Of a stretch of 64,000 nt of DNA, positions 23,820 through 60,622 are shown piece after piece (positions within the stretch are counted from its first letter, which is position 1; each line of letters begins with the position of its first letter). The position numbers were made by a program, and so were the translations under genes. The notes under the pieces were generated by a model. That model was not told where the DNA came from, ran no database searches, and worked only from the letters and a program-made list of their open reading frames with translations. The DNA lies in NCBI RefSeq assembly GCF_056746865.1, contig NZ_CM163382.1. One strand, 5' to 3'.

Positions 23820-24755
23820 TTATTTCACTTCAACCACATTCAGTCGTAACTCATCCAACTGATTTTCATCTTCTTCAGGCTGCCAACCCGCCGGTTGTAG
23901 AGGGATCTCTTCGCGATCAAACGCCAGATCACCCCCGTTAACCACTTCAGAACCGTGGGTAATGCCTTTGAAATCGAACAGGTTGGTATCGCACAGATGC
24001 GACGGCACCACATTCTGCATCGCGCTGAACATCGTCTCGATACGCCCCGGATAACGTTTATCCCAGTCACGCAACATGTCAGCAATCACCTGACGTTGCA
24101 GGTTAGGCTGTGAACCGCACAGGTTGCACGGAATAATCGGGAACGCTTTTGCATCGGCAAAGCGCTGAATATCTTTCTCGCGGCAGTAGGCCAGAGGGCG
24201 AATCACGATATGTTTGCCATCATCGCTCATCAGTTTCGGAGGCATACCTTTCATCTTGCCGCCGTAGAACATATTTAAGAACAACGTTTGCAGGATATCG
24301 TCACGATGGTGACCCAGCGCGATCTTCGTCGCTCCCAGTTCCGTTGCGGTACGATAAAGGATACCGCGACGAAGACGAGAACACAGTGAGCAAGTGGTTT
24401 TGCCCTCCGGAATCTTCTCTTTCACGATACCGTAAGTGTTCTCTTCAACAATCTTGTACTCAACGCCCAGCTTTTCAAGATACTCGGGCAGAACGTGTTC
24501 CGGGAAGCCCGGTTGCTTTTGATCGAGGTTAACAGCCACCAGCGAAAAATTGATTGGCGCGCTTTGCTGCAAATTGCGCAGAATTTCCAGCATGGTATAG
24601 CTGTCTTTACCCCCGGAGAGGCAAACCATGATGCGATCGCCTTCTTCAATCATATTGAAGTCAGCAATGGCTTCGCCCACGTTACGACGCAGACGTTTTT
24701 GTAATTTGTTCAGGTTGTATTGTTCTTTCTTACTAATTTCTTGATTTTGCGACAT
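23820..24755 (-). CDS. ttcA: tRNA 2-thiocytidine(32) synthetase TtcA, 311 aa
   Basis: PP-loop SGGKDS and CxxC motifs; synteny. Confidence 0.92.
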
Positions 24756-24930
24756 TTAAAAGCGACTCAATTCGTTATATGGCATCAGAAGAGTATGCGT
24801 CATGCCGGAACGCCCAGCATAAGAAATCTGATATAAAAACTGTGGCGTGTATGGTACGGATTAGAGGGGAAAATGTCAGCACATTTGCGAAATGAATCAA
24901 AAAGCCCGCAGCAATGTGCGGGCGTTAGTG

Positions 24931-25446
<516 letters not shown>

Positions 25447-35617: not shown

Positions 35618-35944
35618 ATGATGAAGAAAACATTACTTCTTTGTGCGTTTCTTGTTGGGCTGGTAAGCAGCAATGTAATGGCATTGACTCTGGATGAAGC
35701 CAGAACTCAGGGGCGGGTAGGTGAAACATTTTATGGTTATCTGGTTGCGCTGAAAACAGATGCTGAAACGCTGGAATTAGTAAAAGATATTAATGAAGCT
35801 CGTAATCTGAGTTACCAACAATTGGCAAAGCAAAATAATGTATCCACTGATGAGATAGCAAAATTGGCAGGGCAAAAAATGGTTGCTCGCGCGAAGCCGG
35901 GAGAATATGTGCAGGGGATTAATGGAAAATGGCTGCAAAAATAA
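35618..35944 (+). CDS. ydbL: Periplasmic protein YdbL (DUF1318), 108 aa
   Basis: ORF 35540..35944; start set to internal Met (MMKKTLLLCAFLVGLVSSNVMA signal peptide) for 108 aa. Confidence 0.8.
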   Translation: MMKKTLLLCAFLVGLVSSNVMALTLDEARTQGRVGETFYGYLVALKTDAETLELVKDINEARNLSYQQLAKQNNVSTDEIAKLAGQKMVARAKPGEYVQGINGKWLQK

Positions 35945-36369
35945 TTTCATATCCATATCCATATTCATTATGTTGCGCCATTTTGTGAATATTTAAGGGA
36001 AAATAAGTTCTGGACTAAGGCGATTTTTATTTGCATCTATTGAATTGTTATAAGTCCGATATAGGGGAGTGTCTATTTTATTTTTGATGGTTTTTTATGT
36101 GTAATTATAATTGTAAGAAATGTTATATTATTTAGTATTTACTGGGTGTATTGTTTTTTAATGCCTTAACCTCTTATTAAATATCATTTAAGTTGAATTG
36201 ACTTCAACGGATAGTATAAATTATTAGAACATCACATATTTTTGATTGGTTCTTTATTTATATTTCTTTCGTGAATATAAACACCAATCATGGTCTTGCG
36301 TTCCGTCAAAAAGGCCCGCTTTTATTTTTGTCGACTGGCGTGCAACGCTCTATTTCTAAGGAAATATAA

Positions 36370-39300
36370 ATGCAAAGGAAAAAATTGTTGTCTGTGTGTG
36401 TGGCGATGGCATTGAGCGGTCAGACATGGGCAACTGATACATCGATCCTGGATATAACTGATGACACCCGGAAATCCAGCAAGATCACATGTCCGGCGAA
36501 TATTCATTCTATTAGCAAAGAGCAGTTAGCTAAATTACCATCAGAATGTCGGGATTCTGATGACAGCGCCGTAATGAGCTGGACTGCAGCTGGCCTGGTT
36601 GCAGTCGTTACAGGAGCCGCGGTGATGGCGCTTAATGATGGTGATCATCATGACAGTTCAGAACCAGATGACGGTGGTGATACACCTGTTCCACCAGATG
36701 ACGGTGGTGATACACCTGTTCCACCAGATGACGGTGGTGATACACCTGTTCCTCCAGATGACGGTGGCGATACACCAGTTCCACCAGACGATGGTGGCGA
36801 TACACCAGTTCCACCAGACGACGGTGGTGATACACCTGTTCCTCCAGATGACGGTGGCGACGTCACTCCACCAAAAGAGCCCAAAATCTTCAATAACAGT
36901 GTCACATTCGACGAAGACAAAGGCACGCTGCAAATTCGCAATGCCACCTTTACCTACAGCAAAAACAGTGATGGAAGTTACACCCTGACGGCTGAAGATG
37001 GCCGAACCTCTATTGTGCAGGGCTGGGATGTCGACACCGATGCCAATACGGTAGAAATTACCGGCGTGAATAACCTTGGCGGTATGACGTGGTGTTACGG
37101 TAAAGACGGCATTATCTATATCACCAAAACCGTCGGCGCAACGGTGGATGACCCCGCGAACAGCAACGTATTTAACCTCAGCGATGCGGTGCTCACCGAC
37201 CAGGGCGGTAATGCCGCGCTGAATGGCGCGACGGTGATTGAAATAAACGGCAGCAGGATCGCCCTTAATAACGACGGTGATATTTCTGCTACGGGAAAAG
37301 ATTCTGTGGTTGTGGCGATAACCGGAAACGATATTACCGTTAACAATAACGGCCATATGGTTGTCGATGGCGGCACAGCGGGCGTGGTTAACGGCGATCG
37401 TGCAATCCTGAATAACCGCGGTGATGCAGTGATCACTAACGGCGGCACGGGTGTCATTGTGACGGGTGACAACGCGGTTATCAACAACATGGGGCAAAGC
37501 GATATTGATGGCGACAACTCGGTATCGGTAAAAGTTGCAGGAAACGCAACCAGAATCAGAATGGAAGGCGGGATCAATGTCAGCGGTGGCGCGCATGGCA
37601 TTGATGCCACCGGTGATAATAACGAAGTCAGCAACAAGGGCAACATTTCGGTGGTGGATGCGCATTCCACGGGCGTGCTGCTGAACGGCGATCGCGCGTC
37701 ATTCATTAATATGGGTGATATTAACGTTAGCGGAGGTGCAGCGGACGATCACTCTAATGGTGTGCAGATCAACGGCGATAACAGTACCTTTATCAACGTT
37801 GGAGATTTAAATGCCGACGACAGGGCGACCGGGGTGAAAATTAACGGTGACGCCAGCGACATTGCCCTGGCCGGGGCGATGCATGTCGGGGATTTTTCCA
37901 CCGGGCTGGAGGTGATGGGTAAAAACAATGATCTGTCGTTGTCCACCAATATGATGGATGTCACCGGGAAACAGTCCACCGGGGTGACCATTACAGGTGA
38001 TGATAATACCATTGATATCACCGGTGATATGGTCGTTGATCAAAACTCTGTCGGGGCGAAAATTGTCGGCGATCGCGTTTCGTTGCAACAGAAAGGTGAT
38101 ATTACCGTTAACGGTGCGGGGCACGGCGTTGAAGTCAGCGGTAGTAAGACGACAATCAATAATCAGGGCAAACTGACCGTAAAAGATCAAGACTCAATCG
38201 GTATCGTTATCACCGGAGATGACGCGCAATTTACTACCGTGGGTGAGATTGATGTCTCGCTGAACGGTACGGGTGTTGCGATCAGCGGCGATCGTGAACA
38301 AGTGAATTTGAGCGGTGATATAAATGTCATTCAGGAGCGTGACGGCAGCGGTACTTTCCAGGGCGGAACGGGCATCAGCATAATGAGCAACGACAGCAGT
38401 ATGCTGTTGACGGGAAACATTAATGTGACGTCCAGTATGGGGGACCAACCGTCCACCTCACCCCAGTCGTTAACCGGCGTTACCATCGAGGGGGAAAACA
38501 ATACTGTCGATCTGGAAGGCGACATCAATATTACTGTCGATTCGGATTACCTGGGGGATGAAAACAGTCTTTACGGCGTGGTTGTTTTGGGTACAAACAA
38601 CACCATCAATCTCGATGGTGGTATCAATATCTCTGGTGATAGTGGTGGACATACTATCAAAGGTGTGCAGGTAACAGGAAATAATACCGTCAATATAAGT
38701 GGTCATTCCGTAATGAATACCCGACAGATATTGGGATCCTTCTCTCTGATTTCGGTGGCTGATGGCGGGAATGTCATATTTGATGAAAACGCGATAACCG
38801 AGATTCAGAGTTCAGTGAGAGATAGTGACTATCTTTTTTTCGATGCATCGTTAATTGTTGCTACGGGAAACCAGTCTGTTATTCAGAACAACGGCATTAT
38901 TAATACAACCGATGCTCAAGAATTAATGATGGCGAATTCGGGGGCGCAAGTTGTCAATGCCGGGGTGATTAATATCAGGCCAGATGCTGAATCACACACT
39001 TTCTTTGCTGGAATGATGGCAAGAAGCGATGACTCGCAGGCAAAAAATGCCTCCGGAGGAACAATCAATCTGACATCCATTACCCGGCCTTTTAGCAGCG
39101 GAGGATTTAACGAGCGCCCGATCAAATGGTATCACAACACGGGTTATGCCTTGTTGGCCAGTAATTACGGATCGGTAATCAATGAAACAGGAGCAACCAT
39201 TAATTTGCATGGTGCAGGAACCTATGGTGTTTCCGCTTCAAAAGGAACGGCGACCAATGCGGGCGAGATAAATGTCGACGGCTTTGTTCCAATAGTAGAT

Positions 39301-42189
39301 GAAAACGGTAATATTATTGATGAAACTTACTGGCAGACCAATTCCGTATATCTGATGGGGGGCGGGATGTTGGCAGGTTCAACGGATACCGGCGACGGTG
39401 ATGCTAAAGCGGTGAATACCGGTATCATCAACGTTAAGAATGAAGGCTTCGGCATGCTGGCGATGAACGGTGGGACCGTTGTAAACCAAGGGACAATCAA
39501 TCTCACCGCCGATGAGGGCGTGACGAAGCAGCAAGATAACCAACTGTTCGCGATGGGAGCCATTCAGGGTGGTCTGGCGATTAATGACCAGGATGGGGTT
39601 ATTAATATTAACACTGATATTGGCCAGGCGTTTTATAAAGATGGCACCGGCACCATTCTCAACTATGGAAAAATTAATCTTTTCGGTAATCCAATGGATG
39701 AAAGTGATTCCCACATTGGCGTTACGCCGGATGACAAAGATATTCTCAGTGAGCTGTCTGGCAGCGGCGAGAGCATCAGTAAAACTACAACTAGCGACGG
39801 TTTTATCGCAGTTAATAACCTGGCAAACTATGGCGACGAAACGCTTAACGGCGACGTTATAGCAAATGGCTGGATATTCAACCAACCTGATGCCAGCCTA
39901 ACAATCAACGGCGAACTGAGCGTAAACCAGGGGTTGGAAAACAGTGGTCACCTGGATGTTGACAGCATTAACAGCAAAACCACGATATATAACCGTGAAA
40001 CAGGGAGCATAACAACCGATCTGCTGACGTTGAATGGCGCGGTTTCCTTCTTTAATGAAGGCGAATTTAATGGTTCAATTACCGGAGACAGCTACCAACA
40101 GAATGTGGTGAATACCGATGAAATGACGGTGACCGAAGATGGCCACTCACTCGTCAACGGAAGTTTCCTGTTCTTCAATGAGGCTGGCGCGACCCTGACA
40201 AATAGCGGTAATGCGGTAACGGGCGGGGAAAACGCGATTATTCATGTAACCAGAACCAGTGATTCTGTTTCGCAGGTTAACCGTGGCACCATCACGGCCA
40301 CAAATGGCTATAGCGCAATCAAAACTGAAAATACTGGCTCGAACAGTAACGGGAAATGGATTTGGAATACGGAAACAGGAGTGATAAATGGTATTAATCC
40401 TGCTGCACCGTTGGTTGATTTAGGACGAGGTTATAACTTTGCTAACGCTGGCGTTATTAATGTTCAGGGCGATAATGCAGTGGGCATCAGTGGCGGCACA
40501 ACCAGCTATGTTGTCCAGTTGGTGAACAGTGGCATCATTAATGTGGGTACTGAGCAGGGGCAACTGGATGGAACCAACGGCGAAGGTTTAATTGGTATTA
40601 AGGGCAATGGTCGGGAAACGACAATTAATAACACGCAAACGGGTGTGATTAATGTCTATGCCGATAACTCCTGGGCGTTTGGTGGGCAAACGAAAGCCAT
40701 CATTAACAACGGTGAAATTAATCTGCTGTGTGACACCGGATGCGATATTTATGCTCCAGGAACGACGGGGGCGCAAAACGATCACAACGGTACTGCGGAT
40801 ATTACCGTACCAGAGGCATCAACCACGCCGCCACAAGGTAATGTTCCAACGCCACCTGTCGATTCAAATGCACCGCAACTGCTGAGCAACTATACCATTG
40901 GTACCAACAGCGACGGGAGTTCGGGTACGCTCAGCGCGAATAACCTGGTTATTGGCGACAACGTGAGTGTTAACGCCGGGTTTAGTGCAGGAACTGCGGA
41001 CACCACCGTTGTCGTTAACGATGTATTCAAAGGCGAAAACATCAGCGGTGTGGATAACATCGTTTCCTCTACTGTTGTCTGGAACGCTAAAGGCAGCACC
41101 GATGCCAGCGGCAACGTTGACGTCACTATGAGCAAAAACGCTTATACCGATGTGGCGACCGATGCTTCGGTGAATGACGTCGCGAAAGCACTGGATGCGG
41201 GTTACACCAACAACGAGCTGTATACCAGCCTGAACGTCGGCACGACTGCCGAACTGAACAGTGCCCTGAAACAGGTCAGCGGTAGCCAGGCGACCACGGT
41301 ATTCCGCGAAGCGCGCGTGCTAAGCAACCGCTTTAGCATGCTGGCGGATGCCGCACCGAAAGTGGGTAACGGTCTGGCGTTCAACGTTGTTGCGAAAGGC
41401 GATCCGCGCGCGGAGCTGGGGAACAATACCGAGTACGACATGCTGGCATTGCGTAAAACCATCGACCTGAGCGAAAGCCAGACGATGAGTCTGGAGTACG
41501 GTATCGCGCGCCTCGATGGCGACGGTGCGCAGAAAGCGGGTGATAATGGCGTTACAGGCGGTTATAGCCAGTTCTTTGGCCTGAAACATCAGATGTCCTT
41601 CGACAACGGCATGAACTGGAATAACGCATTGCGTTATGACGTTCACAACCTTGACAGCAGCCGTTCGATTGCATTTAGCAACACAAACAAAACGGCTGAT
41701 ACCGACGTGAAGCAGCAGTACCTGGAGTTCCGCAGCGAAGGGGCGAAGACTTTCGAACCGAGCGAAGGACTGAAGGTTACGCCATATGCGGGTGTTAAAC
41801 TGCGTCACACACTGGAAGGTGGCTATCAAGAGCGCAATGCCGGAGACTTTAACCTGAATATGAACAGTGGCAGCGAAACGGCGGTGGACAGCATCGTCGG
41901 GTTGAAACTGGATTACGCAGGTAAAGACGGCTGGAGCGCTAGCGCTACGCTGGAAGGCGGGCCGAACCTGAGCTACGCGAAGAGCCAGCGTACGGCAAGC
42001 CTGGCAGGCGCAGGCAGTCAGCACTTTAATGTCGATGACGGTCAGAAGGGCGGCGGCATCAACAGCCTGGCAAGCGTCGGCGTGAAGTACAGCAGCAAAG
42101 AAAGTTCGCTGAATCTGGATGCTTACCACTGGAAAGAGGACGGCATCAGCGATAAAGGCGTGATGCTGAACTTCAAGAAAACGTTCTAA
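36370..42189 (+). CDS. ydbA: Large autotransporter (type Va) adhesin-like protein, 1939 aa, uninterrupted
   Basis: signal peptide, six full DDGGDTPVPP decapeptide repeats, long Gly/Asn/Thr-rich beta-helix-like passenger, C-terminal approx 280-aa beta-barrel ending ...VMLNFKKTF. Confidence 0.85.
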   Translation: MQRKKLLSVCVAMALSGQTWATDTSILDITDDTRKSSKITCPANIHSISKEQLAKLPSECRDSDDSAVMSWTAAGLVAVVTGAAVMALNDGDHHDSSEPDDGGDTPVPPDDGGDTPVPPDDGGDTPVPPDDGGDTPVPPDDGGDTPVPPDDGGDTPVPPDDGGDVTPPKEPKIFNNSVTFDEDKGTLQIRNATFTYSKNSDGSYTLTAEDGRTSIVQGWDVDTDANTVEITGVNNLGGMTWCYGKDGIIYITKTVGATVDDPANSNVFNLSDAVLTDQGGNAALNGATVIEINGSRIALNNDGDISATGKDSVVVAITGNDITVNNNGHMVVDGGTAGVVNGDRAILNNRGDAVITNGGTGVIVTGDNAVINNMGQSDIDGDNSVSVKVAGNATRIRMEGGINVSGGAHGIDATGDNNEVSNKGNISVVDAHSTGVLLNGDRASFINMGDINVSGGAADDHSNGVQINGDNSTFINVGDLNADDRATGVKINGDASDIALAGAMHVGDFSTGLEVMGKNNDLSLSTNMMDVTGKQSTGVTITGDDNTIDITGDMVVDQNSVGAKIVGDRVSLQQKGDITVNGAGHGVEVSGSKTTINNQGKLTVKDQDSIGIVITGDDAQFTTVGEIDVSLNGTGVAISGDREQVNLSGDINVIQERDGSGTFQGGTGISIMSNDSSMLLTGNINVTSSMGDQPSTSPQSLTGVTIEGENNTVDLEGDINITVDSDYLGDENSLYGVVVLGTNNTINLDGGINISGDSGGHTIKGVQVTGNNTVNISGHSVMNTRQILGSFSLISVADGGNVIFDENAITEIQSSVRDSDYLFFDASLIVATGNQSVIQNNGIINTTDAQELMMANSGAQVVNAGVINIRPDAESHTFFAGMMARSDDSQAKNASGGTINLTSITRPFSSGGFNERPIKWYHNTGYALLASNYGSVINETGATINLHGAGTYGVSASKGTATNAGEINVDGFVPIVDENGNIIDETYWQTNSVYLMGGGMLAGSTDTGDGDAKAVNTGIINVKNEGFGMLAMNGGTVVNQGTINLTADEGVTKQQDNQLFAMGAIQGGLAINDQDGVININTDIGQAFYKDGTGTILNYGKINLFGNPMDESDSHIGVTPDDKDILSELSGSGESISKTTTSDGFIAVNNLANYGDETLNGDVIANGWIFNQPDASLTINGELSVNQGLENSGHLDVDSINSKTTIYNRETGSITTDLLTLNGAVSFFNEGEFNGSITGDSYQQNVVNTDEMTVTEDGHSLVNGSFLFFNEAGATLTNSGNAVTGGENAIIHVTRTSDSVSQVNRGTITATNGYSAIKTENTGSNSNGKWIWNTETGVINGINPAAPLVDLGRGYNFANAGVINVQGDNAVGISGGTTSYVVQLVNSGIINVGTEQGQLDGTNGEGLIGIKGNGRETTINNTQTGVINVYADNSWAFGGQTKAIINNGEINLLCDTGCDIYAPGTTGAQNDHNGTADITVPEASTTPPQGNVPTPPVDSNAPQLLSNYTIGTNSDGSSGTLSANNLVIGDNVSVNAGFSAGTADTTVVVNDVFKGENISGVDNIVSSTVVWNAKGSTDASGNVDVTMSKNAYTDVATDASVNDVAKALDAGYTNNELYTSLNVGTTAELNSALKQVSGSQATTVFREARVLSNRFSMLADAAPKVGNGLAFNVVAKGDPRAELGNNTEYDMLALRKTIDLSESQTMSLEYGIARLDGDGAQKAGDNGVTGGYSQFFGLKHQMSFDNGMNWNNALRYDVHNLDSSRSIAFSNTNKTADTDVKQQYLEFRSEGAKTFEPSEGLKVTPYAGVKLRHTLEGGYQERNAGDFNLNMNSGSETAVDSIVGLKLDYAGKDGWSASATLEGGPNLSYAKSQRTASLAGAGSQHFNVDDGQKGGGINSLASVGVKYSSKESSLNLDAYHWKEDGISDKGVMLNFKKTF
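36667..36870 (+). repeat. In-frame 30-bp tandem repeat array inside ydbA (six full units plus a degenerate seventh)
   Basis: gatgacggtggtgatacacctgttccacca repeated with synonymous variation; encodes DDGGDTPVPP. Confidence 0.9.
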
Positions 42190-55243: not shown

Positions 55244-55543
55244 TTACAAATCTGCTTGATGAGGACGATATACTGGATACCAAATATTACTGCAACAAAG
55301 AACTTCACTGTTTTTGTCAGAAATAAAAATCGTAATTTCCATATCATCCCAACCTTTAACATCTCTGACTACCATCCATAATGGAATATCAAGGCCGTAT
55401 GATTTCATACCATCAGGAAGAAATTTAATAGCAGTGATTTTGTATGCCAGCGAGCCATTAAGATTATACTTTTTACAATATTTTTCTGCTATCGAATTCA
55501 CTTTGTTTTCAGTAAGAATAGGAGCGATTATTTTATTATTCAT
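55244..55543 (-). CDS. Hypothetical small protein (99 aa), AT-rich, translationally coupled to the upstream SUKH-like gene
   Basis: start ATG overlaps upstream stop (ATGA); GGAG 4 nt upstream; translation MNNKIIAPILTENKVNSIAEKYCKKYNLNGSLAYKITAIKFLPDGMKSYGLDIP...; no family recognised. Confidence 0.5.
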   Translation of the reverse strand: MNNKIIAPILTENKVNSIAEKYCKKYNLNGSLAYKITAIKFLPDGMKSYGLDIPLWMVVRDVKGWDDMEITIFISDKNSEVLCCSNIWYPVYRPHQADL

Positions 55544-56034
55544 GAGACTCCACATTGCTGTAAATAAAGAATAATTTCAACTTGCATTTCCACTAACTCA
55601 CCAAAATTTTCAAAGCATAACTCACAAGGGAAATCACCGACATCATCGGAAAATATACCAAAATCATGAATGAGAATATAAATTTTTAGGCTGTTGCGGT
55701 CAAGAAAAGCTACACTCCCATCGCCAAAACTGCCAACAGGAAAAGGATCAATGTTGTTCAATAATGGATATTCTTTTTTATAATCTTCCCATTGTTGCAA
55801 AAATAGAGGGTAATATCTGTCCAGATCCTTCAAAGTATAAATTTGAGGATCGACAAAATGACATGCGCCAAAATGAGACAATAACTGCCGATAGTCTTTT
55901 GGAATATGTGTTGCGTATTTATCCTCAAATAAAAGAAGGTTATCTTCAGTTTCCGGAGCGGTTACGCAACCTGTAAGTCCTGTTGTTTTTACGGCAGGCC
56001 AGGCGGTTTCTAAAATTTGAAACATTTTTTCCAT
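55540..56034 (-). CDS. SUKH/Smi1-Knr4-like putative immunity protein (164 aa)
   Basis: motifs resembling SUKH-1: ...HIPKDYRQLLSHFGACHF... and ...PFPVGSFGDGSVAFLDRNSLKIYILIHD...; AT-rich relative to flanks. Confidence 0.55.
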   Translation of the reverse strand: MEKMFQILETAWPAVKTTGLTGCVTAPETEDNLLLFEDKYATHIPKDYRQLLSHFGACHFVDPQIYTLKDLDRYYPLFLQQWEDYKKEYPLLNNIDPFPVGSFGDGSVAFLDRNSLKIYILIHDFGIFSDDVGDFPCELCFENFGELVEMQVEIILYLQQCGVS

Positions 56035-57420: not shown

Positions 57421-58860
57421 ATGTCAGTACCCGTTCAACATCCTATGTATATCGATGGACAGTTTGTTACCTGGCGTGGAGACGCATGGATTGATGTGGT
57501 AAACCCTGCTACAGAGGCGGTCATTTCCCGCATACCCGATGGTCAGGCCGAGGATGCCCGTAAGGCAATCGATGCAGCAGAACGTGCACAACCAGAATGG
57601 GAAGCGTTGCCTGCCATTGAACGCGCCAGTTGGTTGCGCAAAATCTCCGCCGGGATCCGCGAACGCGCCGGTGAAATCAGTGCGCTGATTGTTGAAGAAG
57701 GGGGCAAGATCCAGCAGCTGGCTGAAGTTGAAGTGGCTTTTACTGCGGACTATATCGATTACATGGCGGAGTGGGCACGGCGTTATGAAGGTGAGATTAT
57801 TCAAAGCGATCGTCCAGGAGAAAATATTCTTCTGTTTAAACGTGCGCTTGGCGTGACTACCGGCATTCTGCCGTGGAACTTCCCGTTCTTCCTCATTGCC
57901 CGCAAAATGGCTCCCGCTCTTTTGACCGGTAATACCATCGTCATTAAACCCAGTGAATTTACACCAAACAATGCGATTGCTTTTGCCAAAATTGTCGATG
58001 AAATAGGCCTTCCACGCGGTGTGTTTAACCTTGTGCTGGGGCGTGGTGAAACCGTTGGGCAAGAACTGGCGGGTAACCCAAAGGTCGCAATGGTCAGTAT
58101 GACAGGCAGCGTCTCTGCAGGTGAAAAGATCATGGCGACTGCAGCAAAAAACATCACAAAAGTGTGTCTGGAATTGGGTGGTAAAGCACCAGCTATCGTA
58201 ATGGACGATGCCGATCTTGAACTGGCAGTCAAAGCCATCGTTGATTCACGCGTCATTAATAGTGGACAAGTGTGTAACTGTGCAGAACGTGTTTATGTAC
58301 AGAAAGGCATTTATGATCAGTTCGTCAATCGGCTGGGTGAAGCGATGCAGGCGGTGCAATTTGGTAACCCCGCTGAGCGCAACGACATTGCGATGGGGCC
58401 GTTGATTAACGCCGCGGCGCTGGAAAGGGTCGAGCAAAAAGTGGCGCGCGCAGTAGAAGAGGGGGCGAGAGTGGCGTTGGGGGGCAAGGCAGTAGAGGGG
58501 AAAGGATATTATTATCCGCCGACATTGCTGCTGGATGTTCGCCAGGAAATGTCGATTATGCACGAGGAAACCTTTGGCCCGGTGCTGCCAGTGGTCGCAT
58601 TTGACACGCTGGAAGAGGCTATCTCAATGGCTAATGACAGTGATTACGGCCTGACCTCATCACTCTATACCCAAAATCTGAACGTCGCGATGAAAGCCAT
58701 TAAAGGGCTGAAGTTTGGTGAAACTTACATCAACCGTGAAAACTTCGAAGCTATGCAAGGATTCCACGCCGGATGGCGTAAATCCGGTATTGGCGGCGCA
58801 GATGGCAAACATGGCCTGCATGAATACCTGCAGACCCAGGTGGTTTATTTACAGTCGTAA
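57421..58860 (+). CDS. aldA: Lactaldehyde dehydrogenase (NAD-dependent aldehyde dehydrogenase), 479 aa
   Basis: ALDH catalytic motifs (ELGGKAP, Cys in QVCNCAERVYV). Confidence 0.93.
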   Translation: MSVPVQHPMYIDGQFVTWRGDAWIDVVNPATEAVISRIPDGQAEDARKAIDAAERAQPEWEALPAIERASWLRKISAGIRERAGEISALIVEEGGKIQQLAEVEVAFTADYIDYMAEWARRYEGEIIQSDRPGENILLFKRALGVTTGILPWNFPFFLIARKMAPALLTGNTIVIKPSEFTPNNAIAFAKIVDEIGLPRGVFNLVLGRGETVGQELAGNPKVAMVSMTGSVSAGEKIMATAAKNITKVCLELGGKAPAIVMDDADLELAVKAIVDSRVINSGQVCNCAERVYVQKGIYDQFVNRLGEAMQAVQFGNPAERNDIAMGPLINAAALERVEQKVARAVEEGARVALGGKAVEGKGYYYPPTLLLDVRQEMSIMHEETFGPVLPVVAFDTLEEAISMANDSDYGLTSSLYTQNLNVAMKAIKGLKFGETYINRENFEAMQGFHAGWRKSGIGGADGKHGLHEYLQTQVVYLQS

Positions 58861-58901
58861 TGAGTGAAAGAGGCGGAGGTTTTTTCCTCCGCCTGTGTGC
58901 G

Positions 58902-59903
58902 TCAGAGTTTAGCGAATTTTTCGAGGGTGCGAATGAGCTGTGTGACGAAGCCATATTCGTTATCGTACCAGGCGACCGTTTTCACCAGTTGTAAATCGCC
59001 CACGGCGGTAATTTCGGTTTGCGTGGCATCAAACACCGACCCGAAATGGCTGCCTATGATATCAGAAGAGACTATTTCTTCATCGGTATAACCAAATGAC
59101 TCGTTATTGTTTGTCGCGTTTTTAAGCGCGTTGTTCACCTCTTCGGCAGTCACTTTTTTTCCAAGAATAGACACCAGTTCAGTCACCGAACCGGTTTTCA
59201 CGGGTACGCGTTGTGCATGACCTTTCAGTTTGCCGCTCAGTTCTGGGATCACCAGACCAATGGCTTTTGCCGCCCCCGTAGTGTGGGGAATGATATTTTC
59301 TGCCGCTGCACGTGAAGCGCGTAGATCTTTACCACGCGGGCCATCCACCAGTGACTGAGTGCCGGTATAGGCATGAATGGTCGTCATCGTGCCGACTTCT
59401 ATTCCGAAACTGTCGTGCAAGGCTTTGGCCATCGGTGCAAGACAATTAGTGGTGCATGACGCCACGGAAACAATGGTGTCGTTGCCATCCAGTGTGTCGT
59501 CATTGACGTTATAAACGATGGTTTTCATTTCACCGGCAGGGGCGGAAATCAACACCTTCTTCGCACCAGCATCAAGATGCGCCTGCGATTTCTCGGCGGA
59601 GGTATAAAAGCCAGTACATTCGACAATGATTTCTGCGCCTTTCGCTTTCCACGGAATATTTTTAGCCTCTTTTTCGGCGTAAACCGCGATACTTTTCCCA
59701 TCAACGATAAGTGAATCTTCCGTAAAATCAACGCGCCAGGGGAACGGTCCATAGTTTGAATCATGTTTCAGCAGGTAGGCGAGAATTTTTGGGGAAGTGA
59801 GATCATTAATAGCGACAACATCTATGTTGCTTTTGACTTCAAGTAATCGACGCAATACCAGTCGACCGATACGACCAAAACCGTTAATACCAACTTTACT
59901 CAT
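58902..59903 (-). CDS. gapC: Glyceraldehyde-3-phosphate dehydrogenase paralogue, 333 aa, uninterrupted
   Basis: N-terminal NAD-binding [10 protein letters not shown], catalytic SCTTNCLAP; one continuous frame. Confidence 0.88.
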
Positions 59904-60091
59904 GGTTTTCTCCTGTCAGGAACGTTCGGATGAAAATTGATCCTTTCCAGGCTTAGACCAGGATGGCGGGATGGGCAATCTACATTCTTGCCGTGAAACG
60001 TAACGTACTGAAAACGGGTGAACAATATTTAATGAAATTTTAAGAAAAGCTCGTTATGTTAACGGAAAATTGTTTTAAAGCAGGAAATGTT

Positions 60092-60622
60092 ATGGAAAAT
60101 AAATACTCAAGGTTACAAATCAGCATTCACTGGCTGGTCTTTTTGCTGGTTATCGCAGCGTATTGCGCAATGGAGTTTCGTGGTTTCTTCCCACGTAGCG
60201 ATCGACCACTCATCAACATGATTCATGTTTCCTGTGGCATATCAATTCTCGTGCTGATGGTGGTTCGTCTTTTGTTAAGGCTGAAATACCCAACCCCGCC
60301 GATTATACCTAAGCCAAAACCGATGATGACGGGACTGGCGCATTTGGGACATTTGGTGATCTATCTCCTGTTTATTGCGCTGCCAGTGATTGGTTTGGTG
60401 ATGATGTATAACCGGGGTAACCCATGGTTTGCGTTTGGTTTGACGATGCCTTACGCTTCAGAGGCCAATTTCGAACGGGTTGATAGCTTAAAGTCGTGGC
60501 ATGAAATGCTGGCGAATCTGGGATATTTTGTCATCGGGTTGCACGCTGCGGCTGCACTGGCACACCACTATTTCTGGAAGGACAACACACTTCTACGCAT
60601 GATGCCGCGTAAACGTTCCTGA
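60092..60622 (+). CDS. cybB: Cytochrome b561, 176 aa
   Basis: ORF 60056..60622; start set to internal Met (MENKYSRLQISIHWLVF...) for 176 aa; four TM helices with conserved His. Confidence 0.88.
   Translation: MENKYSRLQISIHWLVFLLVIAAYCAMEFRGFFPRSDRPLINMIHVSCGISILVLMVVRLLLRLKYPTPPIIPKPKPMMTGLAHLGHLVIYLLFIALPVIGLVMMYNRGNPWFAFGLTMPYASEANFERVDSLKSWHEMLANLGYFVIGLHAAAALAHHYFWKDNTLLRMMPRKRS

Follow-up and report, generated by a model that had tools for sequence, protein, structure and literature searches.

The gapC locus raises the question of whether an intact reading frame between aldA and cybB encodes a genuine glyceraldehyde-3-phosphate dehydrogenase (GAPDH) in this strain, when the K-12 reference carries a disrupted copy at the same place. 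We examined it in a stretch of 64,000 nucleotides from an Escherichia coli genome (contig NZ_CM163382.1), here called the window. A first-pass annotation, made from the letters alone, had described gapC as an uninterrupted 333-codon GAPDH frame with intact NAD-binding and catalytic Cys motifs and had given the K-12 gene as a pseudogene. It proposed that the strain may express a third GAPDH-family enzyme besides gapA and epd, two genes located outside the window. The observation and its interpretation are both correct; the finding is already known and ordinary. Taken as a whole, the evidence makes it very probable that the window carries the intact ancestral gapC of E. coli, encoding an NAD-dependent type I GAPDH that is probably an RpoS-dependent environmental isoenzyme.

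The gapC frame and the K-12 lesions

The frame lies on the reverse strand and runs from an ATG to a TGA stop without interruption (Table 1), as had been claimed. Its product contains both GAPDH domains at essentially full profile length, namely Pfam Gp_dh_N (PF00044) at residues 3–102 (E=8e-36) and Gp_dh_C (PF02800) at residues 155–313 (E=4e-58). It also scores 446.5 bits against the NCBIfam equivalog for type I GAPDH (TIGR01534, EC 1.2.1.12), where the curated cutoff is 367.2, and covers profile positions 1–330 of 330. The motifs named in the first-pass annotation are indeed intact: the Rossmann GxGxxG appears as GFGRIGR at residue 8 (G8-F-G-R-I-G13), the acidic residue that selects NAD over NADP is present (N33-D34), and the SCTTNC motif holds the catalytic Cys150, with His177 in place as well. 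Strain 118UI has the same gapC DNA, under the annotation gap (WP_000048648.1). Because residues 1–333 align gap-free to a solved structure (PDB 7C5F_O), a hidden frameshift, which the first-pass annotation had itself considered, is excluded. The gapC ORF is real and complete, and a chance frame is excluded.

Table 1. Coordinates of gapC, its neighbours and signals in the window, with the disrupted locus and the orthologues used for comparison
Feature	Position	Strand	Remarks
gapC CDS	58902..59903	-	333 codons + TGA; type I NAD-dependent glyceraldehyde-3-phosphate dehydrogenase
Catalytic Cys150 codon (SCTTNC, S149-C150)	59454..59456	-	motif position; aligned to C150 of 7C5F
Catalytic His177 codon (I176-H177)	59373..59375	-	motif position; aligned to H177 of 7C5F
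Codon 39, AAA (Lys)	59787..59789	-	K-12 nonsense site (AAA->TAA)
A7 homopolymer, codons 248-250 (G-K-K)	59154..59160	-	K-12 1-bp deletion to A6, giving a -1 frameshift
Shine-Dalgarno AGGAG	59910..59914	-	read from sequence (caggagaaaaccATG); 6 nt upstream of gapC ATG; identical in K-12
gapC-cybB divergent intergenic region	59904..60091	.	presumed location of the gapC promoter; 95.2% identical to K-12
9-bp-stem G+C-rich hairpin between convergent gapC and aldA	58871..58894	.	RNA fold -18.1 kcal/mol, z = -5.3 vs 200 shuffles
aldA (aldehyde dehydrogenase A)	57421..58860	+	convergent neighbour; defines the conserved locus
cybB (cytochrome b561)	60092..60622	+	divergent neighbour
gapC remnant / IS1A / aldA, NZ_CP144926.1	2598..4775 of extracted locus		IS1A between remnant and aldA
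Full-length orthologue, E. albertii			96% amino-acid identity
Full-length orthologue, Citrobacter			90% amino-acid identity
Full-length orthologue, Trabulsiella			88% amino-acid identity
Full-length orthologue, Klebsiella oxytoca / grimontii			88% amino-acid identity

Between cybB and aldA, K-12 W3110 has an orthologous 'gap' CDS that its annotation flags as a pseudogene ('frameshifted; internal stop'). The disruption stated in the first-pass annotation was thus borne out, and the alignment places two lesions in the gene, not one: codon 39 has become a stop, and the A7 run has lost one A (Table 1). The K-12 gene is therefore neither identical to that of the window nor intact. The two sequences show 41 differences, mostly at third codon positions (95.9% nucleotide identity), and relative to the window K-12 has the substitutions R18G, R57S, N262Q and N265T. 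MG1655 records share the A6 frameshift allele. Lys39 and the residues at the frameshift site (K249, K250 and V251) are invariant in the outgroups E. albertii, Citrobacter and Klebsiella, from which it follows that the K-12 lesions are derived. The interrupted K-12 gene was reportedly first described by Hidalgo et al. (1996), and Espinosa-Urgel and Kolter are said to have found in 1998 that natural isolates, unlike K-12, have an intact gapC.

Homopolymers are classic sites of sequencing errors, and the frameshift of K-12 lies in one (A7 versus A6); it could be suspected that an error of run length in the present assembly masks a true frameshift. However, 118UI also has A7; this urinary isolate from Mexico, whose complete genome was assembled independently, shows 3 mismatches to the window in 50 kb. 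In addition, the frame measures 1002 nt in all sixteen independent intact allele classes that we distinguished (see below). Since the TAA codon of K-12 is absent, the window must also be on a different haplotype from K-12, which again counts against an artefact. We consider an assembly error of this kind extremely improbable and treat the frame as truly intact.

A second gene in the window is broken in K-12 and whole here. It is an uninterrupted 1939-aa ORF (36370..42189, + strand), which the 118UI annotation lists as 'autotransporter outer membrane beta-barrel domain-containing protein'. Its orthologue in K-12 W3110, ydbA, consists of two pseudogene fragments, split by IS2 and IS30. Directly upstream of ydbA, W3110 (1455000-1469631) has the phenylacetate cluster paaZ-paaABCDEFGHIJK-paaXY; in the window (35621..36370) and in 118UI, ydbL is followed by the autotransporter gene, and the paa cluster is absent at that position.

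Intact and broken alleles across E. coli

Of 5426 complete E. coli genomes, 5417 matched the gapC region and 9 did not; five of the matches were to plasmid-labelled records. To count alleles, we used short diagnostic queries built so that no 28-nt megablast seed could match without crossing the lesion. The TAA allele of codon 39 occurred in 1155 of the 5426 genomes (21%), against at least 3881 with AAA, and the A6 frameshift allele was found in 1050 (19%). Carriers of the K-12 alleles were isolated from people, pigs, poultry, cattle, beach water and sediment, and include laboratory strains too. Given this wide range of sources, the pseudogene is a trait of natural lineages, not something produced in the laboratory.

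We also sampled 40 genomes at even steps of the ranking and inspected at least one member of each distinct score class. Sixteen classes were annotated as intact with a 333-aa product, among them O157:H7 and O111:H8 strains and human, bovine, avian and baboon isolates. Both K-12 lesions were present in two classes, represented by W3110 and the bovine strain PF9285. One further record, NZ_CP144926.1 (strain SCPM-O-B-7615), retains a gapC remnant of about 66 codons beside IS1A, and the 3' end of aldA is missing there (Table 1); this loss is a route independent of the K-12 lesions. If records of equal score share the same state, 32 of the 40 sampled genomes are intact and 8 disrupted, and this estimate (~80% intact) agrees with the diagnostic allele counts. 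In E. coli, the intact gene is the usual and the ancestral form; the pseudogene of K-12, a derived and lineage-specific loss, is the exception and is found in about one sequenced genome in five. Since gapC is dispensable in ~20% of genomes, any contribution it makes to fitness must be conditional.

Several unusual forms turned up beside these alleles. GapC of E. coli LF82 has 314 aa owing to a 19-aa in-frame deletion (residues 129–147) that ends just before the catalytic Ser-Cys. Other database entries have in-frame deletions of 15 and 18 aa, the 15-aa one deleting SCTTNC, and a group of 383-aa proteins results from a C-terminal frameshift after which the frame continues antisense to aldA. Assembly errors may account for some of the deletion and 383-aa variants. 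In NZ_CP077538.1 (O111:H8 strain 1074-2), gapC is intact and the adjoining aldA is annotated as frameshifted.

The allele of the window is one of the rarer ones. Only 177 of the 5417 genomes reach 99% identity to it; strains 118UI and OZ392464 display 100% identity across the gapC region. Among the sampled alleles, R57 is confined to this lineage, and the outgroups carry Ser at this position.

The intact alleles differ mainly at silent positions. For 14 of them, mean dS was 0.108 and mean dN 0.0038 (dN/dS ~0.035), with 8, 3 and 72 segregating sites at codon positions 1, 2 and 3, respectively. These substitution patterns show strong purifying selection, as expected of a gene that has stayed useful while E. 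coli diversified.

The locus, its origin and its expression

The E. coli GapC protein cluster comprises 4797 member sequences, and full-length orthologues with 88–96% amino-acid identity exist in other genera and in E. albertii (Table 1). Gene order around gapC is conserved as well. Citrobacter has the complete order hrpA-ydcF-aldA-gapC-cybB, and Klebsiella retains ydcF-aldA-gapC. In E. albertii (contig DRR017213_13, 3281..5852 of the extracted locus), the order is cybB-gapC-ydcF, with an intact gapC and no aldA between gapC and ydcF; aldA has been lost or moved in this species and gapC kept. The G+C content of gapC (0.45–0.51) is near the genome average, and its identity to K-12 (95.9%) compares with 97–98% for the flanking genes. 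The gene has been termed 'laterally acquired' (PMC1796617). We considered a recent lateral acquisition at the level of Escherichia and found no support for it, given the normal G+C content, the conserved synteny and the closely related orthologues. Vertical descent appears the better account: gapC would be an enterobacterial paralogue of gapA, inherited at its place between aldA and cybB.

Elsewhere in the window, an islet of 36–38% G+C (55244..56034, - strand; flanks ~50%) lies between hrpA and ydcF. Its two genes specify a hypothetical protein of 99 aa and an SMI1/KNR4 family member of 164 aa, and it has the look of an orphan immunity-type cassette gained by horizontal transfer. In K-12, hrpA and ydcF are separated by an intergenic gap of just ~270 bp. 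At 23820..25365, ttcA neighbours uspF directly, and the ~175 bp separating the two hold no prophage; in K-12, the Rac prophage presumably adjoins ttcA.

The signals around gapC are those listed in Table 1; the good Shine-Dalgarno sequence and the terminator-like hairpin at the end of the gene speak indirectly for expression. When scanned for the sigma-70 consensus, the gapC-cybB intergenic region yielded no site; the sole hit of the scan lies inside cybB. The missing consensus site fits a weak promoter or one for an alternative sigma factor and is proof of neither. A 'TG TAGATT' element upstream of gapC was considered as a promoter and is not claimed as such. The mechanically called cybB ORF (60056..60622, + strand) starts 36 nt upstream of the annotated one at 60092 and would give 188 aa instead of 176 aa; with this alternative start, the intergenic region measures 152 nt, not 188 nt. 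On the other side of the gene, the hairpin shared by gapC and aldA is, from its predicted fold, probably a bidirectional terminator. A terminator scan did not list it because the trailing U-run is short.

Published data on K-12 give indirect evidence of transcription. A ChIP-seq peak of sigma-S RNA polymerase lies between gapC_1 and cybB (PMC4447067). Transcripts of gapC_1 and gapC_2 go up in slow-growing PTS- strains and down upon inactivation of rpoS (PMC2759082), and a study of RpoS and cAMP-CRP in carbon-limited K-12 lists gapC_1 among the regulated genes with a 5.6-fold change (PMC4512719). PMC1796617 cites Espinosa-Urgel and Kolter (Mol Microbiol 1998, 28:325) for gapC being adaptive in aquatic environments. 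The gapC promoter most likely lies in the intergenic region shared with cybB and would be weak, RpoS-dependent and off the consensus. With such a promoter, GapC would be an isoenzyme of stationary phase, starvation or the outside environment, and not the main glycolytic GAPDH. For this particular strain, we infer both the expression of gapC and its physiological role.

It is conceivable that the frame is intact and the gene silent, so that gapC is cryptic here and decaying as in K-12, with the lesion not yet acquired. The absence of a consensus promoter in the sigma-70 scan would fit, as would the loss of gapC in ~20% of genomes by several independent routes (the double lesion of K-12, the IS1 truncation, the 19-aa deletion of LF82 and the C-terminal frameshifts). 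However, neither the low dN/dS with its third-position polymorphism across divergent E. coli lineages nor the full-length orthologues at the same locus in other genera would be expected of an unexpressed gene. The locus is also transcribed in an RpoS-dependent manner even in K-12 (PMC4447067, PMC2759082, PMC4512719). Silence of gapC thus appears quite unlikely, and an expressed, conditionally useful gene remains our preferred reading.

What gapC is good for can be addressed more tentatively. GapC may be a condition-specific isoenzyme and no redundant spare (RpoS-dependent, for starvation, low temperature or life outside the host), its repeated independent losses may mark lineages with a narrowed niche, and the rarer R57/N262/N265 allele of the window could differ in its properties from the crystallised enzyme; we regard this extended proposal as possible but rather doubtful. 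The timing of expression, the contribution of the enzyme and the link between loss and niche make up a modest question of population genomics and physiology. In practical terms, K-12 is a poor reference for gapC, which matters little beyond annotation hygiene. Treating gapC as non-coding or as a neutral integration site, in metabolic models or in engineering, is valid for K-12-like strains only.

GapC and the characterised GAPDHs

The best PDB matches of the window protein are 7C5F and 15 related entries named 'EcGAPDH1', with 330 of 333 residues identical and no gaps. At residues 57, 262 and 265, Arg, Asn and Asn of the window stand against Ser, Gln and Thr in EcGAPDH1, whose PDB sequence is that of the common allele WP_000048667.1, present in four of the sampled genomes. 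A primary characterisation of EcGAPDH1 was reportedly given by Zhang et al. in Acta Cryst F in 2020. Entries 7C5F, 7C5G-7C5R and 7C7K belong to this work and its follow-up by Zhang et al. (Biomolecules 2021, PMC8615399), in which the enzyme, a tetramer, was purified and assayed through NADH formation. It has a KM of 0.73 mM for D-glyceraldehyde-3-phosphate (D-G3P) and a high turnover of G3P and NAD+. Replacement of the catalytic cysteine abolished activity (C150A) or lowered it ~38,000-fold (C150S), H177A lowered it ~8000-fold, and the structures capture the thioacyl intermediate as well as 1,3-bisphosphoglycerate. NAD+ is bound by Arg11, Ile12, Asp34, Arg78, Ser120 and Asn315, with Asp34 forming a hydrogen bond to it (all PMC8615399).

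By analogy with this protein, which differs at 3 of 333 residues, GapC of the window would carry out the phosphorylating, NAD-dependent oxidation of G3P, converting glyceraldehyde-3-phosphate, NAD+ and phosphate to 1,3-bisphosphoglycerate (EC 1.2.1.12). Catalysis would proceed through a thioacyl intermediate on Cys150 with His177 as the base. The enzyme assay that the first-pass annotation had proposed is in effect already published, on the 330/333-identical protein. Most natural and clinical isolates, this one included, would then probably have a second active phosphorylating GAPDH available. How gapA mutants behave, how redox is balanced in stationary phase and how well cells survive outside the host could all be influenced by such an enzyme.

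A GAPDH fold could also serve another substrate or role, and GapC might be an Epd-like enzyme, an arsenate-detoxifying partner of ArsJ, or an NADP-dependent or gluconeogenic isoenzyme. Glycolysis is already served by GapA in E. coli, GapC is only 46% identical to K-12 GapA, and in published expression data gapC falls among gluconeogenic genes that depend on RpoS (PMC2759082). Against such a role, GapC exceeds the cutoff of the general type I GAPDH model only. It falls far short of the Epd models TIGR01532 (278 versus a cutoff of 530.55) and PRK13535 (280.5 versus 539) and of the ArsJ-associated model NF033735 (306.9 bits, cutoff 450). No arsJ lies beside gapC, whose neighbours are aldA and cybB. 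The NAD-preferring Asp34 is present, and rapid turnover of G3P with NAD+ is documented for the 99%-identical enzyme (PMC8615399). A different substrate or role is very unlikely on these grounds, and we retain the NAD-dependent type I GAPDH. Use of the same reaction in the gluconeogenic direction is compatible with this explanation.

Among its relatives, GapC stands apart from the main glycolytic enzyme. It scores 300.3 bits with the GapA-type model PRK15425, below the cutoff of 662, and the solved structures that follow EcGAPDH1 are other bacterial GAPDHs at ~410–480 bits, with GapA outside the best 60. At 46% identity to GapA, GapC is a true paralogue; the two share the fold, both Pfam domains and the SCTTNC and His motifs. 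Epd (GapB, erythrose-4-phosphate dehydrogenase) belongs to the same superfamily and has the same domains, but GapC is far below the Epd equivalog cutoffs and the genomic context differs, K-12 epd being part of an epd-pgk-fbaA operon. Knock-outs reported for a 'gapC' of Klebsiella pneumoniae (PMC8243499), a possible orthologue, were left out of the functional evidence. The K-12 pseudogene (gapC_1/gapC_2, b1417/b1416) occupies the same position between aldA and cybB and is broken there, whereas the frame of the window is uninterrupted. The closest counterpart is EcGAPDH1, the same gene product: the window conserves Cys150, His177 and the named NAD ligands, and its differences at residues 57, 262 and 265 lie outside the catalytic and NAD-ligand residues named for that enzyme (PMC8615399).
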